This document shows positions 9,123-41,312 of a stretch of DNA of 41,355 bases, piece after piece. The stretch is from Candidatus Bipolaricaulota bacterium (lineage in GTDB: Bacteria > Bipolaricaulota > Bipolaricaulia > M55B111). The position numbers and the translations under genes are program-made. Within the stretch, counting starts at the first letter, position 1, and the number at the start of each line of letters is the position of its first letter. Below the pieces are notes generated by a model, which was given only the letters and a program-made list of their open reading frames with translations, ran no database searches and had not been told where the DNA came from. The stretch covers positions 1 to 41,355 of the forward strand of contig JAIPHN010000002.1 in NCBI GenBank assembly GCA_021735185.1, written 5' to 3'.

Positions 9123-9267
9123 CAGGGCTTTACGTCTTTTTTTTCGATGCTTTTATTGAACTACCGATTCAAGCATTATAAAAGTTTGCCAGTTGGATCA
9201 GCTGTCCAGCAAACATCAGGGGCCCCTGTCGTTAACTTATTTCTAGAACTAGTGAGTTTTTTGGAGG
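9123..9267 (+). repeat. interspersed intergenic element, copy E (diverged)
   Basis: CAGGGCTT...TTTTTTCGATGCTTTTATTGAAC aligns with A1 CGGGGCTT...TTTTTTCGGTCTTTTACAAC. TTTGCCAGTTGG..GTCCAGCA aligns with copy C TTTGCAACCAGGAGTTGGTCCAGCA. The tail is TAGTG..TTGG. Confidence 0.55.
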
Positions 9268-9475
9268 AACTATATAGAGGATCAAATAAGTGATGAAAGA
9301 AAACCGGCTAAAAAAGCTCTCAATTTTTCCGTTTGAAAATAACTACCTACAACTTAAAACAGCTATTCAACCTATCTCCGGCGTGAAAATCGCGAAACAG
9401 TCAAATGACCCCGTAAGCCAACCGTTAAATCTCCGGTGCCTGTTTATTAGAGAAATATAATCTCCGGATTATTAA

Positions 9476-10659: not shown

Positions 10660-10763
10660 AATGATCGTGGGGTGTTTTTTTGCCATATAGCGCTCGAAAT
10701 TGCGGTAAATTGACGGCAATTAATAAAAAAAGACTCCTTTAAAATTTCATCAAAATTGTTGAT

Positions 10764-10897
10764 GCAGTCAAGAATTCCGGCCAAGGGACGGGGCTTGTAG
10801 AAAGTCCCTTTTTAATAGTTTTTTCGGTCTTTTACAACACGAGACCCAGCATCCCCAGGGCAAGCCCTGGGGGGTTCTCAGTTAGTGTTGGTAAAAG
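10764..10897 (+). repeat. interspersed intergenic element, copy A1 (short form without internal hairpin)
   Basis: Four exact blocks are shared with copy D about 29 kb away: GGGGCTTGTAGAAA, CGAGACCCAGCA, CATCCCCAGGGCAAGCCCTGGG and GGTTCTCAG. The tail is TTGGTAAAAG. An 8-bp hairpin lies at 10853-10872. Confidence 0.9.
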
Positions 10898-11625
10898 TGT
10901 ACTAAGATTTCATTTGTGGCCTTGATTCTGGCTATTTAAATTTCAAAATGTTCTAAAGAATACAATGTATGTGAACTTTAAATATTAAAAAGCGAACAAA
11001 CAATTCAATCATTTAAGAGTCTTTGAGTTCTACAACCTGCTTCACTTTAATAAAAAGGAACTGAAAAGAAGTACTAGTTTAAATACTCCGATACTAGCCA
11101 GACACTGTCGGAACTTTGTTCTTGACAGTTGGTCAAAAAAGGAGTTAGTCAAGACAGTCCTAAGGCAAAAATCCAACCAAATAGGGCCCCAACAACTCTT
11201 CTGTTTTTTTAGTGACCTCACGTAATCCCCTATTTCAGGATTACAACATTTGACCTGTTAATAAGGATGATCTCGAGAAAAGTCACGATCCCAGATATTG
11301 CCTAGCTTCCGGTATGGCCGACTGTTTAAAGAGTAAGTTAAACCTTGAACTAAGTGGCTTAATTGACCATTAAAAGGTAATGGTTTTTTCGATCTTCCGA
11401 AAATTACTCAGGTAATTACGAAAAGATAAAGGGACTGGTGTTTTCCATTAATGACTTCCTGATGATTTTGGGCTTTGGCGTTCTTCTGAAACTTCTCGAC
11501 GAAACCCTTACGGAACTGAACTATTTCACGAGCCGGTTAACCGAAATAACAGATCTTTAAAAGCTCAGACCCGAGAAGCCCTGGTCCGAGGCAGGTTCAC
11601 CTTCGGGGGACTATATTGAATCATA
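10898..11625 (+). repeat. cluster of decayed copies of the same element (about three, eye-aligned)
   Basis: At 11015-11165, GTCTTTGAGTTCTACAAC and CCAGACACTGTCGGAACTTTGTTC resemble the D left arm plus loop start CCAGCAGTCAATTCGGAACTGGCTTTGTAC. At about 11190-11330, TGTTTTTTTAGTGACC..ATTACAACATTTGACCTG is seen. At about 11420-11625, TCTTTAAAAGCTCAGACCC..AAGCCCTGG..GGTTCAC is seen. Confidence 0.35.
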
Positions 11626-11900: not shown

Positions 11901-12908
11901 ATGAACCACGAAAATAAAGCCAAATGGGGAATCCTTGGCACGGCAAATATAGCAAAAAAGGCGCTCGTGCCAGGAATAAAGGATGCGGATAATTCAGAGT
12001 TATTTGCTGTGGCTTCAAGGAGTGAAGGAAAAGCACGGCAATTTGCGGAGGAGTTCGAATTACCGAGTTATTACAGTTCTTACGAGAACCTGCTCGGGGA
12101 TACGGAAATAGATTTTGTCTACATCCCGCTGCCAAATCACCTTCACCACGAATGGACAATCAATGCTTTTAAGAAGGGGAAAAACGTACTCTGTGAAAAA
12201 CCCCTGGGAACCAACTCCGGAGAAGTAGAGGAAATGTTCGAAATAGCCGGGAAGGAAAACCTGACGCTCATGGAAGGATTTATGTATCGGTTTCACCCAC
12301 AGACCAGAAAGGTAAAAGAGCTTATTGAAAAAGGAGAAATAGGTGAACCCAGCTTCTTCCGCGGGGCCTTCTCGTTTCCGTTAATAACTGAAGACCGGGA
12401 CGACGACATCCGGTGGAAGGAGGAAATGGGCGGAGGATCATTGATGGACCTTGGAACCTATTCCGTCAATACCGTTCGCTACCTATTCGGAGAGGAACCC
12501 AACAGGGTCTTCGGTAGAAACTTTACCCATCCGGATCACACTGCCGAGGCAGAAACGCAGGCAATTCTGGAATTTCCTTCAGGCAAAACGGCAACCATAG
12601 ACAGTAGTTTTCTTCTCACCGATCGTGCAAATTACGAGGTAACAAGCAAGAACGGCAGGATCCAGGCTTTTGATACTTACGGTCCGAGAAGAGGTAAGCG
12701 CCTTAAAATAGATATCGATAAGGGCAACACGAGAGAAACCGAAGTCTTAGAAGGCGTCAACGAATACTCGCTGGAAGTCGAACACCTGGTGGACTCCGTG
12801 CGAGAGGAAAAAACTCCATTTGTTTCGCCGGAGGACAGTATTAACAACGCCAAAGTTCTTGATGGGATAAGGGCTTCTGCAGAAGAGGAGAAGTGGGTAC
12901 AGGTTTAA
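11901..12908 (+). CDS. Gfo/Idh/MocA family NAD(P)-dependent oxidoreductase
   Basis: KWGILGTANIAKK is the N-terminal Rossmann motif, and LCEKPL is the EKP motif of the family. The ATG at 11901 follows AGGAGG (11881-11886). The track start at 11886 overlaps the SD. Confidence 0.8.
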   Translation: MNHENKAKWGILGTANIAKKALVPGIKDADNSELFAVASRSEGKARQFAEEFELPSYYSSYENLLGDTEIDFVYIPLPNHLHHEWTINAFKKGKNVLCEKPLGTNSGEVEEMFEIAGKENLTLMEGFMYRFHPQTRKVKELIEKGEIGEPSFFRGAFSFPLITEDRDDDIRWKEEMGGGSLMDLGTYSVNTVRYLFGEEPNRVFGRNFTHPDHTAEAETQAILEFPSGKTATIDSSFLLTDRANYEVTSKNGRIQAFDTYGPRRGKRLKIDIDKGNTRETEVLEGVNEYSLEVEHLVDSVREEKTPFVSPEDSINNAKVLDGIRASAEEEKWVQV

Positions 12909-12934
12909 GGCTATACTAAAATCCGCTGAAAACT

Positions 12935-13049
12935 GAAGGGCTTATATAGAAAGCCAGATAGGCCAAAAGTTAAGAGCTCGAAAACGAAGATTATGACCAA
13001 CGAATTTCTACGAAGTTTTACTTCGTCGGTGATTTTTGGTATTCTAAGC
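12935..13049 (+). repeat. interspersed intergenic element, copy H (compact)
   Basis: AAGGGCTTATATAGAAAGCC aligns with A1 CGGGGCTTGTAGAAAGTCC. GATTATGACCAA aligns with B GATGACCCA. CGGTGATTTTTGGTA aligns with B CGGCGATTTTGGTA. A hairpin ACGAAGT-TTT-ACTTCGT (13010-13026) occupies the position of the GC hairpin. Confidence 0.6.
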
Positions 13050-13366
13050 TAATTTGTATAATAATTAATTTCGCTGCGATTCCCCTTTCTCAATTATATT
13101 CGATCGATTTTGGCAATGCTTTCTAAGTACCGCCGTTTGACATACTCTCATCTTACACCATGCACACTTAAACTCAAAAGAAAGGCATCAGGATAAGTAC
13201 TCGAACATTCTGCTACCAGGAGATTCGCGATAAGTTCTGCTTGATACAATTTCAAAGATTTTGGGTGGCGTGCTGCGATATATTTTGGGGAAAGATCCTT
13301 TTTTCAATATCTCCATAATCTTACGAGCAGGTTAGCACAAACACTATCGGCCGTGTTTTTATATAC

Positions 13367-13395
13367 TTGACATAATATCTCATTTTTGTTATTTT
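13367..13395 (+). promoter_or_regulatory. sigma70-type promoter of the LacI-family gene / galactoside locus
   Basis: TTGACA (13367-13372), 17 nt, then TATTTT (13390-13395). Confidence 0.55.
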
Positions 13396-13402
13396 GATTG
13401 CG

Positions 13403-13435
13403 TACGTTACCGGTAATGTTTACGGTAACGTTATC
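13403..13435. promoter_or_regulatory. candidate LacI-family operators (palindromes) between promoter and start codon
   Basis: TTACCGGTAA (13407-13416) is a perfect 10-bp palindrome. GGTAACGTTATC (13424-13435) is a CG-centred near-palindrome of the AACGTT type used by LacI/GalR repressors. CGTTACCG-N10-CGGTAACG is also an inverted repeat. Confidence 0.5.
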
Positions 13436-13446
13436 AAAAGGAGGTA

Positions 13447-14454
13447 TTGATATTGGATCGTGTTACTATGGAGGATATAGCGGAAAAAGCGGGAGTTTCA
13501 ATTAACACGGTCTCCAGAGCACTTAACGATAAGCCCGATATTAACGATCAAACCAAAAAAGAAGTCCTTCAAATTGCCGAACAGCTTAACTATCAACCAA
13601 ATCGTTTTGCGAAAGGGTTACGTTCGAGCAAGACTTCAACTCTCGGAGTCATAGTAGCCGATATAATGAACCCTTTCTTCTCCGCCCTCCTAAAAGGTGT
13701 GGAGAAGGCGGCGCGAGAAAAAGGTTACAGTATAATAGTCCAGGATACGGACGAAAAATTTGAAAACGAACAATCCGCGATTCAAACCATCCTGGCCGAA
13801 CAGGTGGATGGTTTGCTGATCACTCCTGTTCAGACGAACCAACAGACTATAAATGAACTAAAACACTCGGAGTTGCCTTTTGTTCTACTCGGACGCCATT
13901 TTGACGATCTGGATTCACATTACGTAGTAACCGACGATATCCAGGGTGCTAGCGAGGCTACGGAACACTTAATCGCACGAGGTCACGAAAGAATTGCAAT
14001 CATTAACGGCCCAACTCACATTTCCAGCTCAAAAGAACGCCTGGAAGGTTATCGTCAGACCATAATGGCACATGATCTTTCCTTACGTGATTCATTTATT
14101 CTAAAGGACAATGTGACGATGGAAGACGGTTACAGGTCTGGAAAGGAACTCATTTCAGCTTCTTCCAGACCGACTGCAGTACTTTGTTATAGCGACTTCG
14201 TTGCCATGGGTGTGATAAAAGCTGCCAGGGATGAAGGGCTGAATATACCGGAGGAGCTGGCGGTGGTTGGATACGACGACGTATTGTTTTCAACTTACCT
14301 AGAAGTCCCATTAACGACAGTTAGGATCCCCAAGAAAGAACTGGGGGAAAAGGCACTTCACGCTTTAGAAACGTTAATCGATGGTGGCGAGACTGAAAAT
14401 AACTTGCAGCAAATAAAACTGGATACGGAACTGGTAATTCGCCAGAGTACGTAA
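13447..14454 (+). CDS. LacI/GalR-family transcriptional regulator
   Basis: TMEDIAEKAGVSINTVSRALN is the family HTH, followed by a periplasmic-binding-protein-like sugar-binding core. The start is ambiguous (TTG 13447, TTG 13453 or ATG 13468). An SD AAGGAGG lies just upstream. Confidence 0.9.
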   Translation: MILDRVTMEDIAEKAGVSINTVSRALNDKPDINDQTKKEVLQIAEQLNYQPNRFAKGLRSSKTSTLGVIVADIMNPFFSALLKGVEKAAREKGYSIIVQDTDEKFENEQSAIQTILAEQVDGLLITPVQTNQQTINELKHSELPFVLLGRHFDDLDSHYVVTDDIQGASEATEHLIARGHERIAIINGPTHISSSKERLEGYRQTIMAHDLSLRDSFILKDNVTMEDGYRSGKELISASSRPTAVLCYSDFVAMGVIKAARDEGLNIPEELAVVGYDDVLFSTYLEVPLTTVRIPKKELGEKALHALETLIDGGETENNLQQIKLDTELVIRQST

Positions 14455-14488
14455 AAAGTTAAGTGGGGGGTGGTAACTGGCATAATTC

Positions 14489-14518
14489 TCGCAATCTTTT
14501 TTCACGGCGAGGTATAAT
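14489..14518 (+). promoter_or_regulatory. possible internal promoter for the ABC transporter genes
   Basis: TCGCAA (14489-14494), 18 nt, then a perfect TATAAT (14513-14518). It lies 27 nt upstream of the binding-protein start. Confidence 0.4.
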
Positions 14519-14544
14519 ACCTGAATATAATAGGAGGTATAAAA

Positions 14545-15810
14545 ATGAAAAAACTTTCTAGCTCTCTAATAGTGTCCGTTCTGGTCATTTCATTTGTTAT
14601 TGGAATTAGTCTGGCCGGTCTGGCTGCGGATAAAAAGAAGGTAGTTATAAATTCTTACATGGCCGACCCCGCACCCAAGGAAACCTTGAAACAACTGGTA
14701 AATCGTTTCGAAGAAGAACATCCGGATTTTGACGTAACTATTAATACTTACCCGCACGAGGACTATAAAACGTTAATTAGAACTTGGCTTCCGTCAAAGA
14801 AGGCAAGCCCGGATATCGTAACCTGGTTTGCCGGTGAAAGAGCGAATACTTTTGTCGACAAGGGCTTAATGATGCCTCTCGATGATATCTGGGGTGAAGG
14901 GAAAAGTTTTGAGGACTACTTTCCCAAAGCATTTAAGTCCATCTCTCAGTTTGAAGGAGAGACTTACTTCCTGCCTCAATCCTGGTACTGGTACGGCTTC
15001 TGGTACAGGGAGTCCGTATTCGATAAGCTAAACCTTGAAGAGCCGGTTACCTGGAAACAGTTCCTGGACGTCTGCGAAAAACTCAAGGAAAACGGGTATA
15101 CGCCAATAAGTATCGGTTCCAAGTTTCGCTGGACCGCGGCTGCCTGGTTTGACTACTTTGATCTCAGGCTCAACGGTGCCGATTTTCACATGAAATTGAT
15201 GAAGGGTGAGGTCAAATATACTAACCCGAAGGTCAAGGACGTCTTCGAGAAATGGAAGGTTCTTCTCGACAGAGGGTACTTCCTCGACGACCATACTTCT
15301 TATTCCTGGCAGGAAGGGGCAAAGTTCCTGTTTAACAAGGAAGCCGGAATGTACCTGATGGGACAGTTCATCCAGGACGTCGTTTCCGACGAAAAAGTCA
15401 AAAAGGATTTGAATTTCTTCCGATTCCCAATTATTGACGCCAGCGTACCGATAGCTGAAGAGACTCCAACTGACGGCTACATGATTCCAAAGAACGCTCC
15501 TCATCCGGAAGCCGCAAAGGAGTTCATGCACTATCTCGCGACGCAGCAGTCTCAATGGTTCTTTGCCGATAATTTAAACAGAATTGCTGCCAATAGAAAC
15601 ATAGAGGAAACAAACTACGGACCGCTCGTTCAAAAGGGTCTCAGGATGATTAACCGTTCGGACAAAGTAACCCAGTTCTACGACAGGGATACCAAGCCGG
15701 CGATGGCGGACAAAGCGATGGATCAAATAGTCAAGTTCATGGTCAATCCGGGCCAGATAGATCAGATCCTCCAGGCCATGGAAGCACAGAGAAAGAAAGT
15801 CTTTGAATAA
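14545..15810 (+). CDS. carbohydrate ABC transporter substrate-binding protein (family 1 / CUT1)
   Basis: It has an N-terminal signal/anchor segment, is about 420 aa, and is W/Y-rich as sugar-binding proteins are. Two MalF/MalG-type permease genes follow. SD AGGAGG lies upstream. Confidence 0.85.
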   Translation: MKKLSSSLIVSVLVISFVIGISLAGLAADKKKVVINSYMADPAPKETLKQLVNRFEEEHPDFDVTINTYPHEDYKTLIRTWLPSKKASPDIVTWFAGERANTFVDKGLMMPLDDIWGEGKSFEDYFPKAFKSISQFEGETYFLPQSWYWYGFWYRESVFDKLNLEEPVTWKQFLDVCEKLKENGYTPISIGSKFRWTAAAWFDYFDLRLNGADFHMKLMKGEVKYTNPKVKDVFEKWKVLLDRGYFLDDHTSYSWQEGAKFLFNKEAGMYLMGQFIQDVVSDEKVKKDLNFFRFPIIDASVPIAEETPTDGYMIPKNAPHPEAAKEFMHYLATQQSQWFFADNLNRIAANRNIEETNYGPLVQKGLRMINRSDKVTQFYDRDTKPAMADKAMDQIVKFMVNPGQIDQILQAMEAQRKKVFE

Positions 15811-15835
15811 ACCACGGAGGAAAATTAGATAGCCG

Positions 15836-15860
15836 GGAGGGGAGGTCCGCCCTCCCCTCC
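15836..15860 (+). terminator. intercistronic GC-rich stem-loop after the binding-protein gene (partial terminator / mRNA stabiliser)
   Basis: GGAGGGGAGG (15836-15845), loop TCCGC, then CCTCCCCTCC (15851-15860), a 10-bp perfect stem. TTCTGTCT follows. The position between the binding-protein and permease genes is typical for differential expression. Confidence 0.5.
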
Positions 15861-15876
15861 TTCTGTCTAACAAACA

Positions 15877-16749
15877 ATGAACAAGAGACGATGGGCTCCG
15901 TTCAAGTTCCTGCTGATTCCGGTTATCCTGTATGCAATCTGGGTAATAGCTCCGATCTTTTACACGATATTCCTCAGTTTTACCCAGTGGGATGGACTTA
16001 CTGCTCCGACGTTTATAGGGATTGGTAACTTCGTTGATCTTTTCAACGATCCCATATTTTACACTGCTCTCTTTAATAACATAAAATGGCTACTGGTTTA
16101 CGTCCTGGTTCCTCTGCCGCTTGGTCTAGCTTTCGCGATGTTCTTCAACAGGTCTCTGCCTGGTGTTAAAATTTTTAAGACGGCGATATACCTGCCTTTG
16201 ACGCTTTCCTTCGTCGTTCTTTCTCAAATATGGACCTGGATTTACCAGCCGAAGTACGGGGCGATCAACGTTACGCTCGAAGCCATTGGACTGGGGAATC
16301 TGACTGTTGCCTGGCTGAGTAACTCCGATATAGTAACTTACTCCCTGATTGTGGTCGGGTGCTGGCCCCAGACGGCCTATACGATGGTCCTTTTTCTCGC
16401 CGGATTACAGAACGTCCCTACTGAAGTTATGGAGGCTGCCAAGGTCGATGGGGCCAACAGGTGGCAGAGATTTTGGAAAGTGATTTTACCCCTGCTCAAG
16501 CCGGCAACAATAATAGCTGTTGCCGTAACGATTATCCAATCATTACGAATGTTTGCAATAGTAAACGTGATGACTCGAGGGGGCCCCTTTCGTTCTTCGG
16601 AAGTGTTGGCCAATTATATGTACGTAGAAGGCTTTAAGAACTACAGTATGGGGTACGCCTCGGCACTGGCAGTTATACTGTTTTTAATCATTCTCCTGTT
16701 TGTCTCGGTTTATCTCTATCAGATATTTAAAACAGAGGTCGAGTACTGA
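15877..16749 (+). CDS. carbohydrate ABC transporter permease (MalF-like)
   Basis: Polytopic membrane protein with an EAA loop: EAAKVDGANRWQRFWKVILPLLKP. Confidence 0.9.
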   Translation: MNKRRWAPFKFLLIPVILYAIWVIAPIFYTIFLSFTQWDGLTAPTFIGIGNFVDLFNDPIFYTALFNNIKWLLVYVLVPLPLGLAFAMFFNRSLPGVKIFKTAIYLPLTLSFVVLSQIWTWIYQPKYGAINVTLEAIGLGNLTVAWLSNSDIVTYSLIVVGCWPQTAYTMVLFLAGLQNVPTEVMEAAKVDGANRWQRFWKVILPLLKPATIIAVAVTIIQSLRMFAIVNVMTRGGPFRSSEVLANYMYVEGFKNYSMGYASALAVILFLIILLFVSVYLYQIFKTEVEY

Positions 16750-17582
16750 TGTCCAAGAGAAGAGTATTGTGGATCGGCTCTTTCTACCTCATAGCCATCG
16801 TCATTTCTCTATTATGGCTTTTCCCACTCTTTATTGCCGGGACTACGGCATTCAAGTCCATGAACGAGATAGTTCAGAACATCTACTGGTGGAACTTGCC
16901 CGACGAATTTACCTTCCAGTACTTTGCCGAAGCCTGGAACCAGGGTGGAATGTCGCGCTACTTCCTCAACAGTTTTATAATCACGGTTCCTTCCGTAGTT
17001 GGGGCTCTATTCCTCTCCGCCCTTGGGGGCTTTGCTCTGGCTAAATATAGGTTTAAGTACAACAAGCTGATTTTAGGTATATTTATCGCAGGCAACATGA
17101 TTCCATTTCAGATGATGATGTTTCCGGTGTTTGAAATATCCAACGTTCTGGGGCTGTACGATACTTACCTGGCAGTAATTCTGTTTCACGTATCCTTTCA
17201 GATGGGGTTCTGTATTTTCTTTTTGAGGAATTTTATTCGGACGATCCCGACCGATTTGCTTGATGCCGCTCGCGTTGATGGTAGTAGCGAGTTCAGAATT
17301 TTCCTCCAGATAGTCCTGCCGCTGACCAAACCGGCCCTGGCCGCTCTGGGTATTCTGGAGTTTACCTGGATCTGGAACGATTACCTCTGGGGCCTGGTTC
17401 TGCTTGCCAGCGACAACCTGCGCCCCGTTACCGTAGGTCTGGTTTCGCTTCAGGGAGAATATCTGTCGAAGTGGAACATAATTTCAGCCGGCTCACTGAT
17501 CGCTGCTGCTGTACCTTTAATAGTCTTTCTTGTCTTTCAGAGGTACTTCATCCAGGGGCTTATGATGGGAGCCAGCAAATAG
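16749..17582 (+). CDS. carbohydrate ABC transporter permease (MalG-like)
   Basis: EAA loop DAARVDGSSEFRIFLQIVLPLTKP. The start overlaps the upstream stop (TGATG at 16747-16751). Confidence 0.9.
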   Translation: MSKRRVLWIGSFYLIAIVISLLWLFPLFIAGTTAFKSMNEIVQNIYWWNLPDEFTFQYFAEAWNQGGMSRYFLNSFIITVPSVVGALFLSALGGFALAKYRFKYNKLILGIFIAGNMIPFQMMMFPVFEISNVLGLYDTYLAVILFHVSFQMGFCIFFLRNFIRTIPTDLLDAARVDGSSEFRIFLQIVLPLTKPALAALGILEFTWIWNDYLWGLVLLASDNLRPVTVGLVSLQGEYLSKWNIISAGSLIAAAVPLIVFLVFQRYFIQGLMMGASK

Positions 17583-17611
17583 AGTTAAATTTACTCATTA
17601 CGGGAGGTACT

Positions 17612-19600
17612 ATGAATTTCGGAGTGGATTATTATCCGGAACACTGGCCGGAAGATAGGTGGAGCAAGGACGCAAAGCTTATGGAGGAGGCCAAGTTTGA
17701 TACCGTTCGTCTGGCCGAGTTTGCCTGGTCAAAGATCGAAGGTACCGAGGGCGAGATTGATTTCACCTGGCTGGATAGAGCCATAGAAACTCTGGCGAAT
17801 AGGAACCTGGATATAGTGCTCGGTACGCCGACGGCGGCGCCACCACCCTGGTTGACGGAAAAGCATCCCGAGGTTCTGGCAGTAAATGAGGACAAGGAGG
17901 TAGTGAAGCCGGGTCACCGCCGGCACTACTGCGTAAATAGCAAAGTTTACCGGGACTATACGAAAGCAATCGTGTCGGAAATGGCGGAAAAATACGGGGA
18001 AGATGAAAGAGTTATCGGATGGCAGACGGATAACGAGCTGGGTCACCCGGTCTGTTATTGCGATGACTGCCGGACGAAGTTTCATGCCTGGCTCCGCGAT
18101 AAATATGAGGACATCGACGAATTAAACAACCGCTGGGGCACAACCTTCTGGAGCCACGAATACACTGAGTGGAGCCAGATTCCTTTACCAAATGACAACC
18201 CAAGAAAGGGACCTAATCCTTCTTTACACCTTGATTACAAGAGGTTCTTCTCTCAATCTACGGTGGGATATAACAAATTTCAGGTCGATATCCTGCAAGA
18301 TGAGACGGAAAACCAATGGGTCTGTCATAACTTCATGCCACATTTCCCGAATTTCGATCACTTCGAGATGGCGCAGGACCTCGATCTTGCGACCTGGGAC
18401 CACTACCCAACGGAAATACGGGAATCCTATAAAGAGGTTAGTGCAGGGCATGACCTCACTTATGGGGTTAAGGACAAACCTTTCTGGGTAATGGAAGAAC
18501 AGTGCAGTTATCTCACCCGTGACGATCTTACACCGGCACCCAGGCCGGGCGAGACGAGGATGTGGACATATCAGTCGATAGCTCACGGGGCAGACGGGAT
18601 AATCTATTTCCGCTGGCGCCCCTGCAGGTTTGGAGATGAGCAGTTCCATGGTGGCGTACTTCAGCACGACGGTTCCAGGGAAAGTCCCGGCTACCAGGAA
18701 GTAAAGTCGGTGGGAAACGAGCTGGCTGAAGTAGGAACCGAGATAGATGGTACAGTTGTTGAAGCCGACGTCGGGATTTACTATTCCTTCGAGCAAAACT
18801 GGAGCATGGATACCTACCGGTTCCACTCTCCGATTGATTACGAGGATGAAATTGCCAGCTACTACAATGCTCTCTTTGCTGCCAACGTAAACGTAAAGTT
18901 CGTCTCCAGAAATAGCGACCTAAATGGACTTGACCTACTTATAGTTCCCGTCTTGCCCATGGTGGACGAGTTCCTCCAGGATAAGTTTGAGAGCTTTGTC
19001 AAAGAGGGCGGAAAACTTGTTGGAACCTTTCGAACTGGGATAAAGGATTTCGATAATCACGTTACGGATAAAACGTTTCCGGGGCGTCTATCCGAACTTT
19101 TCGGCATCAGTATCCGCGAATTTACTCCTGTTAAAGACAAACCGGAAGTAACCCTCTCCGGTTTACAGGATGAGGGGAAATCTTATACCGCGAAAGACTG
19201 GGTCGACTGCATTGACCCCGGAGAAGCCGAACCGCTGGCCAAATACGATCAGGGCTGGCCTGGGGATAGAGGCTACGCGGGCGTAACAAGGAATAACCAC
19301 GACGATGGCGCGGCCTATTACGTCGGGCTTTCTGGAGAGGCTGACCTTTACCGGGACCTCGTTTCCTACCTCCTCAAGGAAGCTGGAATAGAACCAATTT
19401 TAACCGGGGATGAAAACCTGGAAGTCAGAAAACGTACTGAACCAGAAACGGGCAAAGAACTTGTTTTCGTAGTCAATCATTCCTCAAGTCAAAAGTCCGT
19501 TCAATTGCCCGGGAAGTTAACGGATGTACTGACGGAAAAAGAAAAGTCAGGAACGACAACCCTTGAACCTTTTGGCGTATTGATATTGCGACAAAAATGA
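17612..19600 (+). CDS. GH42-family beta-galactosidase
   Basis: MNFGVDYYPEHWPE is a typical GH42 N-terminus, and WQTDNELG carries the acid/base Glu context. The ATG at 17612 is preceded by GGGAGG (17602-17607). The track start at 17471 lies inside the permease gene. Confidence 0.85.
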   Translation: MNFGVDYYPEHWPEDRWSKDAKLMEEAKFDTVRLAEFAWSKIEGTEGEIDFTWLDRAIETLANRNLDIVLGTPTAAPPPWLTEKHPEVLAVNEDKEVVKPGHRRHYCVNSKVYRDYTKAIVSEMAEKYGEDERVIGWQTDNELGHPVCYCDDCRTKFHAWLRDKYEDIDELNNRWGTTFWSHEYTEWSQIPLPNDNPRKGPNPSLHLDYKRFFSQSTVGYNKFQVDILQDETENQWVCHNFMPHFPNFDHFEMAQDLDLATWDHYPTEIRESYKEVSAGHDLTYGVKDKPFWVMEEQCSYLTRDDLTPAPRPGETRMWTYQSIAHGADGIIYFRWRPCRFGDEQFHGGVLQHDGSRESPGYQEVKSVGNELAEVGTEIDGTVVEADVGIYYSFEQNWSMDTYRFHSPIDYEDEIASYYNALFAANVNVKFVSRNSDLNGLDLLIVPVLPMVDEFLQDKFESFVKEGGKLVGTFRTGIKDFDNHVTDKTFPGRLSELFGISIREFTPVKDKPEVTLSGLQDEGKSYTAKDWVDCIDPGEAEPLAKYDQGWPGDRGYAGVTRNNHDDGAAYYVGLSGEADLYRDLVSYLLKEAGIEPILTGDENLEVRKRTEPETGKELVFVVNHSSSQKSVQLPGKLTDVLTEKEKSGTTTLEPFGVLILRQK

Positions 19601-19714
19601 AATGGCTGGTAACCCCCCCTCCGGTGATCTGGAATTTTCAATTGTCTTAGCAATCTAGCAAGCCACTGTCTTTATAGCTCGGCCAGAAATGAAGAGCGAA
19701 GGGTGATGAATTAA

Positions 19715-21070
19715 ATGAGAGGGCCAAAAGTTACTATAATTGGTGCCGGCAGTTTCTTTACCAACGCCTGGATAAGTGACATAGCTCTGGCGGATAATAT
19801 GGAAGCCGGTACTTTTGCCTTAATAGATATAGATGAGGAGAGACTGGAACTTTCCAAAAAGATGGCAGAAAAATTAGTTTCGAAGATAGGAACCGACTGG
19901 GAGGTCGTAACCTCTTCTGACAGGGAGAAACTCCTGCCGGAGAGCGATTACCTGATAAACACCATCGAGGTCTCCGGGGTCGAAAACGTGGAGAAAGATT
20001 ACGAGATACCAAAAAAGTACGGTATCGATCAGTGCATTGGCGATACTATAGGCCCCGGCGGAATAATGAAGGCCTTTAGAACTATACCGACCTGGCTTGA
20101 AATACTGGAGGATGCCGAGAGGCTCTGCCCGGAGGCCCTGGTCATGAATTATACAAACCCGATGCATATGATGACTCTTGCCGCAAACAAGGGAACGGAT
20201 ATGGAAATAGCCGGGTTATGCCACTCCGTACAGGGAACCTCCCGGCAGCTTGCTAACTATCTGGATCTTCCTTACGAAGAGCTTAACTGGGAATGTGCCG
20301 GAATAAACCACATGAGCTGGTTCACAAAACTCGAGCATCAAGACAGGAACCTTTACCCTGAGCTTCTGAAAAAGGCCGAAAACTCGGAGATTTACGATCA
20401 GGACCCTATACGCTTTGAAATGGCAAAAGAGTTCGGTTACTTCGTTACGGAGTCCAGTGGCCACTTTTCCGAATACCTGCCCTATTTCCGTAAAAATCAG
20501 GACCTGATCGACAGTTACTGTGGCGAGGGTTATAAGGGGGAAAGTGGTTTTTATTCGAAAAACTGGCCGGAATGGAGACGAACACTGGACGAGTTTCGGC
20601 GCAAATGGATAAAAGGTGAGAAGGTACCGAAAGAGTTAAAAGAAGACACGCCAGGACTGGAAAATTTTGACCCAGAAAAAAGAAGTCTTGAGTACGGTTC
20701 TTACATCATAGAAGCCGTCGAGACGGGAGAGGAGGTCGTTGTATATGGAAATTTCCCGAACGAAGGTTTGATAGATAATCTACCGCGGGATGGAATCGTG
20801 GAAGTGAAGACCCTCGTTGATGGAACCGGATTTCATCCCTGTAAGTTTGGGTCACTTCCGGAACAACTGGCCGGTTTAAATCGCTCTAATATGACCGTCC
20901 ATAAACTGGTGGTCGATTCGATCTTAAACGAGGACAGGGAATCCGCTGTCCGTGCATTCATGCTGGACCCACTGACGGCGGCAGTCTCTACTCCATCCAA
21001 AATAAGGGATATGGCAAAAGAGCTTTTTGCGGCCGAAAGGAATTATATTCCGGATTATTTAACGAAATAA
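19715..21070 (+). CDS. GH4-family alpha-galactosidase/alpha-glucosidase (NAD/Mn-dependent)
   Basis: KVTIIGAGSFF is the N-terminal dinucleotide fold and GLCHSVQGT is the GH4 catalytic block. Size is about 450 aa. Confidence 0.8.
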   Translation: MRGPKVTIIGAGSFFTNAWISDIALADNMEAGTFALIDIDEERLELSKKMAEKLVSKIGTDWEVVTSSDREKLLPESDYLINTIEVSGVENVEKDYEIPKKYGIDQCIGDTIGPGGIMKAFRTIPTWLEILEDAERLCPEALVMNYTNPMHMMTLAANKGTDMEIAGLCHSVQGTSRQLANYLDLPYEELNWECAGINHMSWFTKLEHQDRNLYPELLKKAENSEIYDQDPIRFEMAKEFGYFVTESSGHFSEYLPYFRKNQDLIDSYCGEGYKGESGFYSKNWPEWRRTLDEFRRKWIKGEKVPKELKEDTPGLENFDPEKRSLEYGSYIIEAVETGEEVVVYGNFPNEGLIDNLPRDGIVEVKTLVDGTGFHPCKFGSLPEQLAGLNRSNMTVHKLVVDSILNEDRESAVRAFMLDPLTAAVSTPSKIRDMAKELFAAERNYIPDYLTK

Positions 21071-21221
21071 TGGAGGAATTCCGATTTTTTCGGTTTCTTT
21101 AGAGACACATTTAGTTCGATTGGTTAAAGCCATTAAGGCAAATCAGGAGAACTTACAAACTCCTCTGGCGGGCCACGTTAACGAGGGGTGCAAATACAGT
21201 GATTCAATTCAAAGCAGAATA

Positions 21222-21473
21222 GGTCAAGAACCCCGCCCAAAGTGACGGGGCTGTTGAAAAATAAATTTAACTACGAACTTAGGCCTTTTACAAAAGATGA
21301 CCCAGCAGTCAATCGAGGAAGTTTTCGAATTTATATACGGTATAAGAAATGAACGCATAGCTAATCACTAGGCGCTTTTAAGGATAATGTACTCGATTGA
21401 CTGCTGGACAAGAACCGGCCGATTCATCCCCGCAGCAAGCTACGGGGTTTTCTCGGCGATTTTGGTAAAAAGC
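21222..21473 (+). repeat. interspersed intergenic element, copy B (long form)
   Basis: 5' GGTCAAGAA plus hairpin CCCCG..CGGGG, then CTGTTGAAAAA and TTTTACAAAAGATGACCCAGCA. Perfect 16-bp arms lie at 21302-21317 and 21392-21407 around 74 nt. The hairpin CCCCGCAG-CAAG-CTACGGGG lies at 21428-21447. The tail is TTGGTAAAAAG. Confidence 0.85.
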
Positions 21474-21558
21474 CTGTTTAGTTTGCAAACACTAAAGAGC
21501 GACAAAACTAGACGATAAATTTAAAAACTTAATTGCATATCAGGTAGAGGTACAAAAT

Positions 21559-21672
21559 ATGAACAAGATCATTGAAGAGAAGACAGTCGGCGGCCTAAGG
21601 AAGAAGATAGCCGAAAAGGACGACGGAAGGATAATTGTTTACTACGATCGAACACCCAATAAGGAGGAATAA
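21559..21672 (+). CDS. 37-codon ORF resembling the N-terminal extension of long-form GalT proteins
   Basis: Sequence is MNKIIEEKTVGGLRKKIAEKDDGRIIVYYDRTPNKEE. The DGRxxVYYD block resembles the LADGRELVYYD N-terminus I recall from actinobacterial GalT. SD AGAGG lies 8 nt upstream. The TAA stop overlaps the galT ATG (TAATG). The frame differs from galT. Confidence 0.5.
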   Translation: MNKIIEEKTVGGLRKKIAEKDDGRIIVYYDRTPNKEE

Positions 21673-23838: not shown

Positions 23839-23884
23839 CACGTGATTCTAGCTATATAGTCTTGTACCAAAATTACGCGGTTTT

Positions 23885-24126
23885 GAGACCTCGTAAAGTT
23901 AACACTAGATTAATCGAGAGATTGATTTTGCAACCAGGAGTTGGTCCAGCACCCAGATGAGCTCCGGAACATGGATCAAGATTTTTACTTCACTATTGTA
24001 TGGGCTGCCACGCTCGTTCAGTGGTAGATTATACTTCCAGGTTACTTTTCTCATCTGGGTGCTGGTTGAAAGTCTCGAGAGAGCAAGTTGGTCTTAACCT
24101 TTTAGAGGTCACCAACTGGGTAAAGC
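23885..24126 (+). repeat. interspersed intergenic element, copy C (diverged long form)
   Basis: GGTCCAGCACCCAG aligns with D GACCCAGCACCCAG. Perfect 16-bp arms CCAGCACCCAGATGAG (23946-23961) and CTCATCTGGGTGCTGG (24050-24065) enclose 88 nt. The tail is CTGGGTAAAGC. Confidence 0.65.
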
Positions 24127-24340
24127 AATTAGATTTCTCAAAAGGTAGCTAGTTCATCTTGTATACTCATTTAGAAGTTAGTCACGAGTGAGAAAATGGC
24201 ACAACTTAGTTAAACTTGGTTGGGCGAGAGGAGAGCGCACATTTTAGGTTGTAATAAACCGTAACATCTATTAACCTCATTTTGGAAACTTGAGTATTTA
24301 TATCCACTTTTATTCCAAAAAACACAGAAGGTGAGATACG

Positions 24341-37127: not shown

Positions 37128-39740
37128 ATGGAGTGGACAACTGATAAACTAAGAGAAGAATATCTAAGGTATTTTGAAGAGAAAGATCATCTGAGGCTGG
37201 AGGGGTCAGGGTTGATTCCCGACGACCCCTCCATGTTATTTACTTCCGCGGGGATGGTACAATTTAAGGACGTCTTCTGGGGGCACCGTGAACCGGAGGT
37301 TGAGAGAGCCACAACCTGCCAGAAGTGTTTTCGAGCAAACGATATCGAACGCGTCGGAGAAACCTGGTACCATCATACTTTCTTCGAGATGCTCGGTAAT
37401 TTTTCTTTTGGTTCTTACTTTAAAAGAGGCGCGATAAAGCTCGCCTGGGAATTTGTTACCGATGTACTCGGTTTTGAGGAGGAAAACCTCTGGGTCTCTG
37501 TCTACGAGACGGATTCCGAAGCTTACCAGATATGGAGCGACGAAATTGGAGTTCCGGAAAGCAAGATAGCCAGGCTCGGTAAGGACGAAAACTGGTGGGG
37601 TCCGGTGGGAGATTCCGGCCCCTGTGGCCCGGATTCCGAGATATTTTACGACGCCGGGGAGGAGTATAGCTGTGGTCCCGACTGTGACGGGGTAGCCTGT
37701 GATTGTAATAGGTTCAATGAACTCTGGAATCTCGTATTTACCGGCTATCAGATGAACAGAGAAGGGGAAGTAAGGGAACTGGAAAGGCAGAACATCGATA
37801 CTGGCATGGGCCTGGAACGAGTAGCATCCGTGCTTCAGGGTGTGGATTCCGACTTTGAAATAGACATCTTTCGCCCGATTATCGCTAGCGTCAAGGAGAA
37901 AATCGGCCTCAATTCTTACACGCCAGAACAAACCAGCTACGTCCATAGAATCGCGGATCATCTCCGGGGCGCGGCATTCCTCATATCAGAAGGAGTGATA
38001 CCCGCCAACGAAGGAAGAGGATACGTTCTGAGGCGAATAATCCGGCGAGCCGTCCAGGCTGGCGACAGGCTAGGAATGAAAGAGACGTTTCTGACTTCCT
38101 CGCTGCCGCCGATTATGGATACTATGGGGGAAACTTACCCGGAACTGGTCGAACGAAGGGATTTAATCGAGAACGTCATAGAACACGAAGAGGGGAGTTA
38201 CAGAAATACGCTGAACGAGGGAGAACAGCTTTTTTATCGCCTGGCCTCGGATTTACAGGAGAACAATCAGTCCGAAATTCCCGGCAAGGACGCCTTCAGG
38301 TTATACGATACTCACGGACTACCGTTGACTTTTCTGGAAGAGCTGGCAGAAGAAGAAGACCTGGCTATCGACATGGAAGGTTTCGAGCAAGAAATGGAAC
38401 AGCAGAGGAAACGATCCAGAAGCGAACAGGAGGACAGAGGAGAACTTCACGAAGTAGTTGACGTTCCGGAAACGGAATTCCTCGGGTACGAAAAAGACAG
38501 AGCAGAAGCCCGCGTTATAGCCCTGATCAAGGACGGCGAGAAAATCAATCGACTTGAAGAAGGGGACGAGGGAATCTTAGTTCTAGACAGGACTCCGTTT
38601 TACGCGGAGGCCGGTGGTCAGGTAAGCGACGTTGGAAGGATCCTCGACGGAGAGAGCCGGACCCGAATCAAGCAAGTGGAAGAGAGGAACGGGATCTACT
38701 ATCACGAAATAGACGTATCTACCGGGAACATCGTCGAAGGAGACAGAGTGACGGCGGAAATAAATACGGATAAAAGGAGGGGGACTGAGAGAAATCATAC
38801 TGGAACTCACCTGCTCCACCAGGCGCTCCAGCAGGTACTGGGGTCCCACGTAGTCCAATCCGGTTCCAAAGTAGCTCCCGCGGAGTTGAGGTTTGACTTC
38901 AATCACTTCGAAATAACGACCGAAGAAGAACAGGAAAAAATCGAAGACATCGTCAATGAAATCATTTTATCCGACAGGAACGTCTCAGTGGACTGGGTGG
39001 AAAGCGTGGAAAAAGCAAAAGAACTCGGCGCTTCTGCTCACTTCGAGGAGGAATATCGGGGCAAGGAAGAACTGAGAACTATTACCGTTGAAGAATTCAG
39101 TAAAGAGCTCTGCGGGGGGACTCACGTAAACAGGACCGGCCAGATCGGAGGTTTTGCGATCAAATCAATAGAGACGATTGCCTCCGGCATCCGCAGGATA
39201 AGAGCCGTAACGGGTAAAAACTTCTTATCTGACTACCGCGATCAACGGGTCCTTTTGAAACAATTAGCGGATATGGCAGGCTCCGGTGAATCCGACCTCG
39301 TAGAAAGATTCAATTCGATTCTGACACAGGAGGAAAACCTGAGAGACGAACTGGAAAGAAAAACTGAAAGGTTACTTGCCACCTTAAAGGAAAAAATTCT
39401 CCAGGAAGTTGAGAGGGAGGAAGGAGTCGAGATAGTAGCTAACAGACCAAACGTCGATGCATCCGATTTGAAGCGACTGGCCGATCACGTTGAGGCCGAG
39501 ATCGACGGCGTAGTGATTCTCGGCACAACCGAGGAGGATAGTGCTTCAGTAGTCTGCAAGGTTTCCGAATCACGTACCCAGTTATTAAATGCAGGAAAGA
39601 TCGTCAGAGAGGCTTCTGCAGTACTGGGTGGCGGAGGAGGCGGTTCTGCTGGTTTCGCCCAGGGCGGTGGCCCGGAAAAGGAAAAACTCGGCCGGGCTCT
39701 GCGTTCGGGGGTAAATATCGTCAGGAGTAGCTTAGATTAA
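37128..39740 (+). CDS. alaS: alanyl-tRNA synthetase
   Basis: FTSAGMVQFK and WWGPVGDSGPCGPDSEIFYD are class II AlaRS motifs. HTGTHLLH is the editing-domain motif. A Gly-rich C-terminal DHHA1-type region is present. Confidence 0.95.
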   Translation: MEWTTDKLREEYLRYFEEKDHLRLEGSGLIPDDPSMLFTSAGMVQFKDVFWGHREPEVERATTCQKCFRANDIERVGETWYHHTFFEMLGNFSFGSYFKRGAIKLAWEFVTDVLGFEEENLWVSVYETDSEAYQIWSDEIGVPESKIARLGKDENWWGPVGDSGPCGPDSEIFYDAGEEYSCGPDCDGVACDCNRFNELWNLVFTGYQMNREGEVRELERQNIDTGMGLERVASVLQGVDSDFEIDIFRPIIASVKEKIGLNSYTPEQTSYVHRIADHLRGAAFLISEGVIPANEGRGYVLRRIIRRAVQAGDRLGMKETFLTSSLPPIMDTMGETYPELVERRDLIENVIEHEEGSYRNTLNEGEQLFYRLASDLQENNQSEIPGKDAFRLYDTHGLPLTFLEELAEEEDLAIDMEGFEQEMEQQRKRSRSEQEDRGELHEVVDVPETEFLGYEKDRAEARVIALIKDGEKINRLEEGDEGILVLDRTPFYAEAGGQVSDVGRILDGESRTRIKQVEERNGIYYHEIDVSTGNIVEGDRVTAEINTDKRRGTERNHTGTHLLHQALQQVLGSHVVQSGSKVAPAELRFDFNHFEITTEEEQEKIEDIVNEIILSDRNVSVDWVESVEKAKELGASAHFEEEYRGKEELRTITVEEFSKELCGGTHVNRTGQIGGFAIKSIETIASGIRRIRAVTGKNFLSDYRDQRVLLKQLADMAGSGESDLVERFNSILTQEENLRDELERKTERLLATLKEKILQEVEREEGVEIVANRPNVDASDLKRLADHVEAEIDGVVILGTTEEDSASVVCKVSESRTQLLNAGKIVREASAVLGGGGGGSAGFAQGGGPEKEKLGRALRSGVNIVRSSLD

Positions 39741-39794
39741 CACGAATAGCTCAGTTACGAGATAAGTTTTCACTTTTTCAGGAACTATCTGAGA

Positions 39795-40036
39795 AGTCAA
39801 TTACCCCGCCCTTCCGCGCGGGGCTTGTAGAAAAACCCCTTTACAACCAAAAAACTACATACTTCAAAAACGCGAGACCCAGCACCCAGCAGTCAATTCG
39901 GAACTGGCTTTGTACCTGTATTGAACTTTAATGAGCAGGGCGAATTGACTGCTGGGTGCTTTATATCAAGTTAAGTTAACCAGCGGCTCATCCCCAGGGC
40001 AAGCCCTGGGTGGTTCTCAGCTATTATTGGCAAAAG
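39795..40036 (+). repeat. interspersed intergenic element, copy D (long form, archetype)
   Basis: AGTCAATTA plus a hairpin at 39804-39823, then GGGGCTTGTAGAAA, TTTACAAC and CGAGACCCAGCA. Perfect 20-bp arms lie at 39881-39900 and 39941-39960 around 40 nt. The hairpin CCCAGGG-CAAG-CCCTGGG lies at 39993-40010, followed by GGTTCTCAG and TTGGCAAAAG. Confidence 0.9.
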
Positions 40037-40130: not shown

Positions 40131-41312
40131 TTATTGCTCCGCGGAGATCGGCATGCAAACGTAAAGAAAGTCCTCTTCCCCCTTTGCCGGTTCCAGTAAG
40201 CCGGCAGTATCCGAGTCCAGCAGCCAGAGCACTACCTCTTCAGTACTCATTCGCCTCAGTGCATCGATCAAAAACTCTGCTTTAAAGGATATTTCCACGG
40301 TTCCCTTGCTCGGCTCCAGCAGCTCAACTATCTCCTCCAGCTCTCCTTTTTCCGGGGAGGAAGAATAGATCGTCAATCCATCCGAACCTTCTTCCGCCTG
40401 TAACCTAACGGCACCGGACTCTTCCGAAGCGGTAATTTCCGCTCGATTCAGGGTTTCCATCGTCTTGTCCCTGTTCAGCTTCAACGGTAGCTCATTGTCT
40501 TCCGGTATAACTGCCTGGTACTCCGGAAACTGTTCCATTATCAGTTTATCCGAAAATACCACGTCATCGGATACGAAGAAGACCTCGGACTTTGAAGCGT
40601 AAACTTTTACCGTTTCCGAATCCGTGCTGGAGAGAATCCGATCGAGCTCCCCCAGAGCACTTGATTCGATAAGGAGCGTGGTCTGCTCTTCGACCTCGCT
40701 TAGCGGAATCGATTTGACGGACATCCTGTACCCGTTTGTCGCTACCATTTTTAATTGGTCCGCCTCGAAAATCGAGTTTACTCCAGTCAAAGACAATCTG
40801 GTCGTTTCTTTTGCCTTCAGAGCAGCAAAAGTAGTCTGTTTGATCGCTTCCTTGAACTCGTCAACTTTTATCTCAGCTATCGGTTCTTCCGGTAACTGAT
40901 CAACGCCTGGGTAGTCCTCTGTAGATAGTTGAAAAAGATCGAAATTGATCGGCCCCGAGGATAGTTCTACTTTCTGATTCTCCTCGGGATCGGACTTAAG
41001 CCTTACCTCGCCCCCTTCCGGGATTCTCTGCATTATCTTGGCAAGAACGTCACCCTTAAGCACTACCGTTGACTCGCCCTCGAGATTAGTTATCGGAACT
41101 GTGCACCTGGTAGTCATTTCCAGGTCCGTTGAAGTAAGCTTCAGTTCTTCTGATTTGACCTCCAGCTTTACTCCTGAAAGTATCGGCATATCTCTACCGG
41201 TTCCGATACTTCTCTTCACGATATCCATTCCGTAAACCAGATCCTCAGTATCGCACCTAAAATCAACTTCGGCGGGGCTATCCGTTCCCACATCAAGTTC
41301 CTGGTCAGACAC
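40131..41312 (-). CDS. dnaN: DNA polymerase III beta sliding clamp
   Basis: About 390 aa with a three-domain periodicity. The N-terminal block is RDMPILSGVKLEVKSEELKLTSTDLEMTTRC. GTG start with AGGAGG 8 nt upstream. Confidence 0.85.
   Translation of the reverse strand: MSDQELDVGTDSPAEVDFRCDTEDLVYGMDIVKRSIGTGRDMPILSGVKLEVKSEELKLTSTDLEMTTRCTVPITNLEGESTVVLKGDVLAKIMQRIPEGGEVRLKSDPEENQKVELSSGPINFDLFQLSTEDYPGVDQLPEEPIAEIKVDEFKEAIKQTTFAALKAKETTRLSLTGVNSIFEADQLKMVATNGYRMSVKSIPLSEVEEQTTLLIESSALGELDRILSSTDSETVKVYASKSEVFFVSDDVVFSDKLIMEQFPEYQAVIPEDNELPLKLNRDKTMETLNRAEITASEESGAVRLQAEEGSDGLTIYSSSPEKGELEEIVELLEPSKGTVEISFKAEFLIDALRRMSTEEVVLWLLDSDTAGLLEPAKGEEDFLYVCMPISAEQ

Follow-up and report, generated by a model that had tools for sequence, protein, structure and literature searches.

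The cleavage sites of IS608 are TTAC, at a distance of 19 nt on the 5' side of the left hairpin, and TCAA, 10 nt 3' of the right hairpin, and both sites are read by 4-nt guides located 5' of the hairpin feet (the left guide being AAAG); altering the left guide retargets insertion (PMC3201880). In the haloarchaeon Haloquadratum walsbyi, PATEs have been described that are too short for a transposase, have neither terminal inverted repeats nor a target duplication, have palindromes near their termini that are akin to those of IS605-type transposons, greatly outnumber the autonomous elements and are mobile without a visible intact matching transposase (PMC3119063).

Here we analyzed a stretch of DNA of 41,355 nucleotides (the window), which is contig C26 of a Candidatus Bipolaricaulota MAG (GCA_021735185.1, contig JAIPHN010000002.1; 1.30 Mb in 112 contigs, 71% complete; genome label G000). 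It contains a 234-nt element without genes, copy D (39796..40029), whose minus strand corresponds to the active top strand and which is very probably a non-autonomous derivative of an IS200-type element (IS200/IS605 family), that is, a PATE. Judged from sequence, the family to which it belongs (the D family) is a family of PATEs in the sense of PMC3119063 that derives from a tnpA-only IS200 lineage, because autonomous IS200 ends share its design and its guide rule. All the features listed above for the H. walsbyi PATEs are common to the D family. However, the host is a bacterium (Bipolaricaulota) and not a haloarchaeon, the parent would be an IS200 (tnpA-only) whereas theirs is of the IS1341/tnpB type, and the sequences are unrelated. 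PATEs have reportedly been recorded for Halanaerobium hydrogeniformans too.

The likeness to IS608 of Helicobacter pylori and to ISDra2, which are reference elements of the IS200/IS605 family, includes asymmetric ends with subterminal imperfect hairpins, a left cleavage position about 19 nt 5' of the hairpin and a right one a few nt 3' of the hairpin, a 4-nt guide 5' of each hairpin foot that pairs with the cleavage/target tetranucleotide, and insertion 3' of the target without duplication. One sublineage of the D family uses the same TTAC/AAAG pair as IS608. Unlike these elements, the D family has no tnpA or tnpB, its right cleavage site is TGAC with the guide CAAG, three natural guide/target variants are found inside the one family, and its interior is filled with palindromic cassettes. 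Its spacings are 18 and 8 nt, in contrast to 19 and 10 nt in IS608.

Anatomy of copy D and its repeat family

Copy D sits between the convergent 3' ends of alaS (alanine--tRNA ligase, its upstream neighbour; 37128..39740, plus strand; TIGR00344, 879.6 bits) and dnaN (DNA polymerase III beta subunit; 40131..41312, minus strand; TIGR00663, 205.8 bits). The idea of archaeal promoters was dropped, as alaS, dnaN and ssb indicate a bacterial genome. A preliminary description of the window had taken copy D to be a full-length member of a genuine repeat family, which it is, and had set its boundaries at 39795 and 40036, which need correction: the empty sites of a relative give 39796 and 40029. The extent of the element follows from four empty/filled site pairs of sister copies and from the conservation of the family, which stops sharply at ...TTTTG.

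The family shows the minus-strand architecture NNAC|18 nt-hairpin...hairpin-8 nt ending TTGAC|. Read on this strand, copy D is preceded by the tetranucleotide TTGC (GCAA on the plus strand, 40030..40033), which the flank table identifies as the left cleavage/target position and which is non-canonical with respect to the family consensus TYAC. An 18-nt left-end spacer (40012..40029) leads from the cleavage site to the hairpin foot, and its last four bases, AACC (GGTT at 40012-40015), are in the left guide position; both were assigned from guide/target covariation (see below). The left-end subterminal hairpin, CCCCAGGG-CAAG-CCCTGGGT (39992..40011, minus strand), is supported by compensatory changes and by a homologous hairpin upstream of tnpA in autonomous relatives. 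At the other end of the element, the right-end guide position CAAG (CTTG at 39824-39827) adjoins the right-end subterminal hairpin CCCCGCCC-TTCC-GCGCGGGG (39804..39823, minus strand), for which compensatory variants and a homologous hairpin downstream of tnpA were found. The right-end spacer (39796..39803; GTCAATTA, or TAATTGAC on the minus strand) has as its last four bases TGAC, the right cleavage site, and autonomous IS200 relatives have the same 8-nt right spacing with a ...TTTAC/TTCAC end.

Between the two ends lie parts to which no strand was assigned. These are the interior from the right-end hairpin to the internal hairpin (39824..39876, from copy comparison), the tandem CCCAGCA CCCAGCA (39877..39890, constant in the subfamily), the internal hairpin with its perfect 20-bp arms and 40-nt loop (39881..39960, from sequence, folding, alignments and a cassette census), within it a 68-nt core cassette CAGCAGTCAATTCG...CGAATTGACTGCTG (39887-39954, from cassette comparison), and a linker, TTATATCAAGTTAAGTTAACCAGCGGCTCAT (39961..39991), that according to the alignments is present in the D-type subfamily only.

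With a typical full copy as the query, the D family was detected in every one of the 18 other genomes that share the GTDB family of G000 (f1, three genera) and in none of the 22 genomes from other families of the class. Using nhmmer profiles, we located the 5' module at 31 places in G000 and the 3' module at 30, and several contigs of this genome terminate within a copy. Repeats in general tend to drop out of MAG assemblies. The titles of database records with the same repeat name Candidatus Bipolaricaulota or Acetothermia, with salt lakes as the source of several, and some records are labelled uncultured Thermotogae. A literature search on repeats in Bipolaricaulota returned nothing.

The copies are modular. 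Their 5' part consists of GTCAAGAA, a GC hairpin, about 55 nt and then GACCCAGCA; the middle has either no long hairpin or one or two of them, with CCAGCA...TGCTGG as bounds; and the 3' part consists of a linker, a GC hairpin and then CTTCCTCGGCAAGTTTTG. Minimal copies are composed of GTCAAGAA, one hairpin and the tail, and such a minimal form is carried by the relative G005 at the site of window copy A. The family ends have no terminal inverted repeats (GTCAAG... at one end, ...TTTTG at the other), and the GC-rich subterminal hairpins lie 8 nt and 18 nt from them. In the 3' terminal hairpin, double (compensatory) changes were identified at five of the ten pairs among 25 copies (for example, AU in 13 versus GC in 9, and GC in 10 versus AU in 10). 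BOX elements of Streptococcus pneumoniae (boxA-boxB(n)-boxC) and BIMEs of E. coli are mosaic intergenic repeats as well, with an optional internal hairpin module in variable number. The resemblance of the D family to them is descriptive only and lies in the mosaic modular build with an optional internal hairpin, but BOX and BIME repeats have no IS200-type ends and no guide/target rule.

Conserved hairpins with compensatory changes could also be expected of structured non-coding RNA genes or leaders, in which the 20-bp hairpin would be a variable domain and alternative pairings of a GGGG run a regulatory switch. In agreement with this, a 250-nt region around copy D folds better than dinucleotide shuffles, with none of 200 shuffles as good (z of -4.7 and -3.1 for RNA of the plus and minus strand, respectively, and -4.8 for ssDNA of the plus strand), and all centroids contain the 20-bp stem as well as the two GC hairpins of the termini. 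In some cases a start codon follows the end of the copy by 4-6 nt, with an SD-like GGTGA, and a crude count gave 31:7 for co-orientation with flanking genes. However, the orientation bias was gone in a stricter count (13:10), copy D is situated between two convergent 3' ends, and a promoter scan showed no promoter-like site in or beside it. A terminator scan around copy D gave one weak match, no better than shuffles. Rfam had no match in the window at gathering score; at E-values up to 10, sub-threshold miRNA and TPP matches were the only ones, those to miRNA being at chance level. The alternative pairings come from the preliminary description, in which GGGG (39820-39823) can pair with either an upstream CCCC (39804-39807) or a downstream one (39836-39839). 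The three positions are correct, but mutually exclusive pairing is not borne out, since the downstream CCCC that it requires varies: in sister copies it is replaced by CCTC, CCTA, CTAA, CTAT, CTTC or CACT, unlike the upstream hairpin, which is retained through compensatory changes.

A CRISPR-like repeat, a retron, a ribozyme and a riboswitch, which the shapes of the hairpins had brought to mind, were rejected as identities of copy D, there being no array and no Rfam match; in addition, the string resembling CAGATGAG shows variation as a stem.

Empty sites and guide/target covariation

The relative G005 is collinear with G000 and 92-94% identical to it. We compared the flanks of every copy between the two genomes in both directions, which covered nearly all of G005. 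Both flanks could be mapped for 15 G000 sites, about ten of which have a G005 gap near the element length while five differ. As two genomes of such high identity differ at about one in three of the mappable sites, the elements have been active recently.

Four clean filled/empty pairs were obtained, with the general form X|GTYRN...TTTTG|GTNN-Y when filled and X|GTNN-Y when empty. In the first, ..TGGAA|GTCAAGAA...AAATTTTG|GTAGAAAT corresponds to the empty ..CTGAA|GTAGAAAG, and in the second, ..AAAGCA|GTCAAG...TTTTG|GTAGATTT corresponds to ..AAAGCAATAGATTT. The third involves a D-type copy (G005 H13:14330-14570) and shows ..TCAATCAA|GTTAATTGCCCC...CTATTATTG|GTTGACGG versus ..TCAATCAA|GTTGACGC; the fourth shows ..CGAA|GTCGTTATCCCG...AAGTTTTG|GTTATAAAACC versus ..CGAA|GTTATTAAAAGCC. 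Insertion in these sister copies is precise, with no target duplication beyond a 2-3-nt GT(T) overlap, and the tetranucleotide following ...TTTTG is already there in the empty sites, so the target pre-exists. At the site of copy D, G005 has no D; a different element of opposite orientation occupies the site after TTTTCGC (TTTTCAC in G000), and hence G005 offers no clean empty allele for the D site itself. Since D is absent at the orthologous site, it is lineage-specific. Two further differences of the window from G005 (5224-5393 and 8968-9462) turned out to be indels unrelated to the D family.

The empty sites bear on whether the family could be a classical terminal-inverted-repeat MITE mobilised by a DDE transposase. 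Features that would suit such an element are the imperfect palindrome formed by the 3' module, the inverted tail found on both sides of a few copies (G000 C45:5080-5148) and the presence in the same genome of an IS1380-type MITE that has an internal hairpin module in common with the D family. However, the true ends have no terminal inverted repeats, the four clean empty sites are without target-site duplication, guide/target covariation is not a trait of DDE transposases, and a search for long elements bounded by inverted tails, which might represent a DDE parent, found none. We consider a MITE of this kind exceedingly improbable.

The covariation itself is what an IS200-type PATE would share with IS608. 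Immediately 5' of the left hairpin, four bases form the left guide, which covaries with the flanking tetranucleotide. In 54 copies the tail CTTCC occurs with the flank GTGA (on the minus strand, guide GAAG and target TCAC), in 30 copies the tails CTTTC, GGTTC or CATTC occur with GTAA (AAAG or other AA-guides and target TTAC), and in seven copies the tail CACTC occurs with GTAG (guide AGTG and target CTAC). When look-alike flanks were merged, 146 loci with distinct flanks were left, for which the association was significant by Fisher's exact test at the first variable position (2x2 table 67/8/3/42, p = 1.3e-20) and at the second (108/7/0/9, p = 8e-10). Pairing is antiparallel Watson-Crick and joins bases 1-2 of the cleavage site with bases 2-1 of the guide, plus base 4 with base 4. 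The right end follows the same rule, with TGAC and CAAG (GTCA and CTTG on the plus strand) together in 38 copies. Exceptions to the guide rule, at one or both positions, are present in two of the four clean empty sites (TATTC/GTTG and CTTCC/GTTA).

Covariation of an outside flank with an internal tetranucleotide is not predicted by an RNA gene. Together with presence or absence at orthologous sites, base-precise boundaries and ends homologous to those of IS200 elements, it speaks against non-coding RNA genes or leaders, which we regard as very unlikely.

Autonomous relatives and the proposed route of transposition

A search with PF01797 (Y1_Tnp) gave no match in G000 or in G005. Among the 19 genomes of the family (MAGs that are 71-90% complete), matches were found in four, and none of these is an intact matching IS200. 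The match in G008 is a decayed IS200 tnpA with an internal TGG-to-TAG nonsense codon, and the ends of this IS200 are homologous to the D-family modules, as in the autonomous loci described below. The three other matches are weak (G002, G012 and G015), the one in G012 being RAYT-like and having its own REP family. TnpB is absent from all 19 genomes, and on this ground a TnpB omega-RNA remnant was rejected.

RAYTs are likewise Y1 HUH enzymes, and the examined match in G012 thus raises another reading, in which the copies would be REP/REPIN or BIME-like units mobilised by a RAYT and not IS200 derivatives. The abundance of the family, its intergenic location and its hairpin-based, mosaic build would agree with this. 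However, the RAYT-like gene of G012 (L129) is flanked by different REP arrays (ATAGCAGGCCGGG...) and not by the D family, and D-family copies are asymmetric and two-ended rather than inverted REP doublets. Moreover, in sequence, spacing and guide rule alike, their two ends agree with the left and right ends of IS200 elements that carry tnpA. Mobilisation by a RAYT is therefore highly improbable in our view.

With the G008 TnpA as query, we gathered 80 metagenome loci, the closest of which are 57-67% identical. In about ten of the closest IS200 loci, the minus-orientation matches of the two module HMMs flank tnpA, that of the 3' module being just upstream and that of the 5' module just downstream. 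The nhmmer E-values for individual end matches are weak (3.6e-5 to about 0.9), and the case rests on the repeated pattern. The left end of an autonomous IS200 is predicted as TCAT|AAAGGACCTCCGCTGGATA-CCCCGCAGCTTGCTGGGGGG-AGGAAAGCGGAG, with 19 nt ending in GATA before CCCCGCAGCTTGCTGGGGGG, and the right end as AATG-CCCCGTAGCTTGCTGCGGGG-TTCTTTAC|T. The guide pairs of these elements (TTAC/AATG, TCAC/GATG, TTAC/AAAG, TCAT/GATA and TTAT/AATA) obey the same rule as the D family. With their boundaries predicted in this way, the autonomous IS200 ends appear to match the D-family ends in sequence, position, orientation, spacing and guide rule.

These relatives suggest how an IS200-type PATE such as copy D would move. 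On the minus strand, the layout comprises the target, an 18-nt spacer whose last four bases serve as guide, the GC-rich left hairpin, a non-coding interior that replaces tnpA, the right guide CAAG, the GC-rich right hairpin and 8 nt ending in TGAC. A Y1 (HUH) TnpA acting in trans would bind both hairpins in single-stranded DNA and would locate both cleavage sites through base pairing with the guides. The top strand would then be excised as a circle, which would be pasted 3' of a tetranucleotide complementary to the left guide without duplicating the target. We infer the enzyme, because no intact tnpA assembled in this family, as well as the single-stranded route and any replication-fork coupling. 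The three solid copies in the window share one orientation and dnaN points leftward, an arrangement that would fit a top strand that lies on the template of the lagging strand. Element orientation and contig GC skew showed no association (59 agree, 65 disagree), the skew following gene strand in MAGs that are fragmented.

The internal hairpin and its palindromic cassettes

The letters of the internal hairpin of copy D are as reported in the preliminary description. The arms AGCACCCAGCAGTCAATTCG (39881-39900) and CGAATTGACTGCTGGGTGCT (39941-39960) are exact reverse complements with a 40-nt loop between them, the heptamer CCCAGCA occurs twice in tandem at 39877-39890 and singly in copy B (21299-), and GTCAAT is found in the arm and again at the 5' boundary (AAGTCAATTACCCC at 39794-39807). 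Simple arithmetic gives a chance expectation of about 1e-5 per 41 kb for a perfect inverted repeat of 20 bp within 200 nt, and the hairpin is therefore not a product of chance. Comparison with other copies showed conservation within the D-type subfamily for the arms, for the layout with two heptamers and for GTCAAT in both of its places, so that the refuting outcome named in the preliminary description did not occur. We aligned 26 D-type copies from 11 genomes; 15 of them contain the exact CAGCACCCAGCAGT and most of the others keep the two-heptamer layout; the core arms of 16-17 bp are nearly invariant, with compensatory G/C swaps in two copies. A regex census of 15 D-like copies found GGGTACC on the right side of 11, where a mismatch follows 17 bp, and GGGTGCT, hence the perfect 20 bp, in D only.

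Two further claims did not hold. Copy D had been called a full-length archetype, but the perfect 20 bp are unique to it, and small departures from the consensus are seen in its target TTGC and in its two terminal hairpins. Copy D is full-length but slightly decayed and may have lost its mobility, given its non-canonical flank and the mismatches in each terminal hairpin. It had also been proposed that the internal hairpin and the terminus use GTCAAT as a shared recognition word, for which we found no support. At the terminus, GTCA complements TGAC, the right-end cleavage site, and pairs with the guide CAAG beside the terminal hairpin, whereas the internal GTCAAT has no adjoining hairpin or guide. 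Other hairpin types have CTCAAATGAG or CCCAGATGAG at the same position instead of this word, and none of the family copies compared was seen to terminate at the internal GTCAAT.

The 20-bp-armed hairpin lies in the interior of copy D and is not an element end; most likely it is a passenger in the PATE interior. Hairpins with the termini CCAGCA...TGCTGG are of three types, with lengths of about 118 nt (CAGCACYCARATGAG...), 103 nt (CAGCAGTCAATCGAG...) and 68 nt (CAGCAGTCAATTCG..., the D type). Three sites have the 118-nt type alone, and it is also the core of an IS1380-type MITE of about 345 bp, a clean insertion of which, relative to G005, is located at 23867-24248 of the window. Cassettes with the same termini are thus found alone, in the unrelated IS1380-type MITE and in many PATE copies, with the loop in either orientation. 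At one orthologous site, G000 and G005 share the 7-nt termini CCAGCAC/GTGCTGG and have unrelated interiors. The 68-nt cassette is nested with an extra heptamer in 14 copies; it also occurs directly after GAAGAC (A-end) with a single heptamer, and there the loop is flipped in two copies.

From these alignments, the 68-nt cassette (CCAGCAG TCAATTCG...CGAATTGA CTGCTGG) may have become nested centrally in an older CCAGCAC...GTGCTGG and may itself be mobile, a reading that we consider evenly balanced. Such nesting would account for the tandem CCCAGCA CCCAGCA and its right mirror TGCTGGG TGCT, because the outer CCAGCAC meets the inner CCAGCAG. An empty CCAGCA^TGCTGG palindrome as cassette target was searched for and not found. 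It is conceivable, though rather doubtful, that the CCAGCA(C/G)...(G/C)TGCTGG hairpins form a separate class of small palindromic mobile cassettes, characterized by mutual central insertion, insertion into unrelated transposons (the IS200-type PATE and the IS1380-type MITE), in-place flipping and fixed-site exchange that keeps the 7-nt termini.

The SMR-A repeats of H. walsbyi (HqIRS42/43/55) have a length of about 110 bp, possess prominent terminal inverted repeats and produce no target duplication; they are frequent, reside preferentially inside PATEs and IS605-type elements, and their mobilisation mechanism is unexplained (PMC3119063). The internal hairpin, as distinct from the element that contains it, resembles them in size, terminal inverted repeats, lack of target duplication, frequency and residence in PATEs, a comparison by description and not by sequence. 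It differs in that the hosts belong to different domains, that the cassettes here are also found within an IS1380-type MITE, and that they share fixed 6-7-nt termini, CCAGCA(C/G). If they do form a separate mobile class, the cassettes would be a bacterial counterpart of the unexplained Haloquadratum repeats. The similar haloarchaeal repeats were described in 2011.

Identification of copy D as an IS200-type PATE, which we consider very probable, would explain the dozens of look-alike, hairpin-rich and assembly-breaking spacers of one Bipolaricaulota lineage. Such spacers would best be masked or annotated as IS200-type PATEs and not as candidate riboswitches or sRNAs. The three guide/target pairs that coexist in one family match the laboratory retargeting of IS608 (PMC3201880), and the family has been active recently despite there being no intact transposase assembled.

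Elements and hairpin cassettes at orthologous sites

Comparison of the window with the collinear relative G005 showed that the elements at one fixed site are remodelled or replaced in situ. The window carries the form with a 5' module and hairpin at this site (10762-10898), whereas G005 carries a minimal form (C27:11800-11857) consisting of GTCAAGAATTCC, one hairpin and then the tail, which differs from the former in its hairpin and in its guide/target type. At another orthologous site (C59:3695-3812 in our MAG, G000, and C17:19215-19325 in G005), each genome has a hairpin of ~110-118 nt with the same 7-nt termini (CCAGCAC/GTGCTGG) and an interior unrelated to that of the other, as if the cassette had been swapped in place.

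A hairpin of this kind also forms the core of copy C, a miniature inverted-repeat transposable element (MITE) of ~345 bp. Compared with G005, copy C (382 nt, window 23867-24248) is a clean insertion with a 5-nt overlap of its flanks, and its 118-nt CCAGCAC...GTGCTGG core (23947-24064) is homologous to the hairpins within the gene-less elements (PATEs) of the D family, the repeat family of copy D.

Further differences from G005 and contig stretches identical to a second MAG

An 8.7-kb block of the window (12905-21599), which includes an alpha-galactosidase gene (19715-21070), is missing from G005, where 205 nt with a decayed 5' module are found instead. In G000, the block is bordered by a decayed copy (12935-13049) and by copy B (21220-21471). 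G005 has a 3'-module-only insertion (C7:2217-2277, compared with G000 C14:~9780), and the adjoining 9 nt on the target side are seemingly present in tandem duplicate with two mismatches (GTGAAATAGA TAAAATAGG versus GTAAAATAGG in the empty site).

Stretches of ~130-180 nt each from the G000 contigs C87, C100 and C85 are letter-for-letter identical to the loci L100, L062 and L099 of MAG JAIPHJ01 (G041), whose identity to the window drops to 73-75% elsewhere. Such a match points to bin contamination or chimerism, or else to a very recent transfer.

REP arrays of another family and element ends close to start codons

In the relative G012, a RAYT-like Y1 transposase gene (L129, contig C76, 1300-1836, minus strand) is flanked on both sides by REP arrays (600-1260 and 1900-2480). 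Their units (ATAGCAGGCCGGGTGCC..CCCGGCCGGT and AACGGGAGCGCGGGGACCCCCTCTGCT) belong to a family other than the D family, and arrays and gene together appear to make up a classical REP/RAYT system of Bipolaricaulota that is distinct from it.

At four places (G000 C25:1784 and C87:3890, and loci L071 and L057), the last bases of the element (TTTTGGTGA) lie 4-6 nt upstream of an ATG start codon, and it is therefore the inserted element that provides the gene downstream with its Shine-Dalgarno-like GGTGA.
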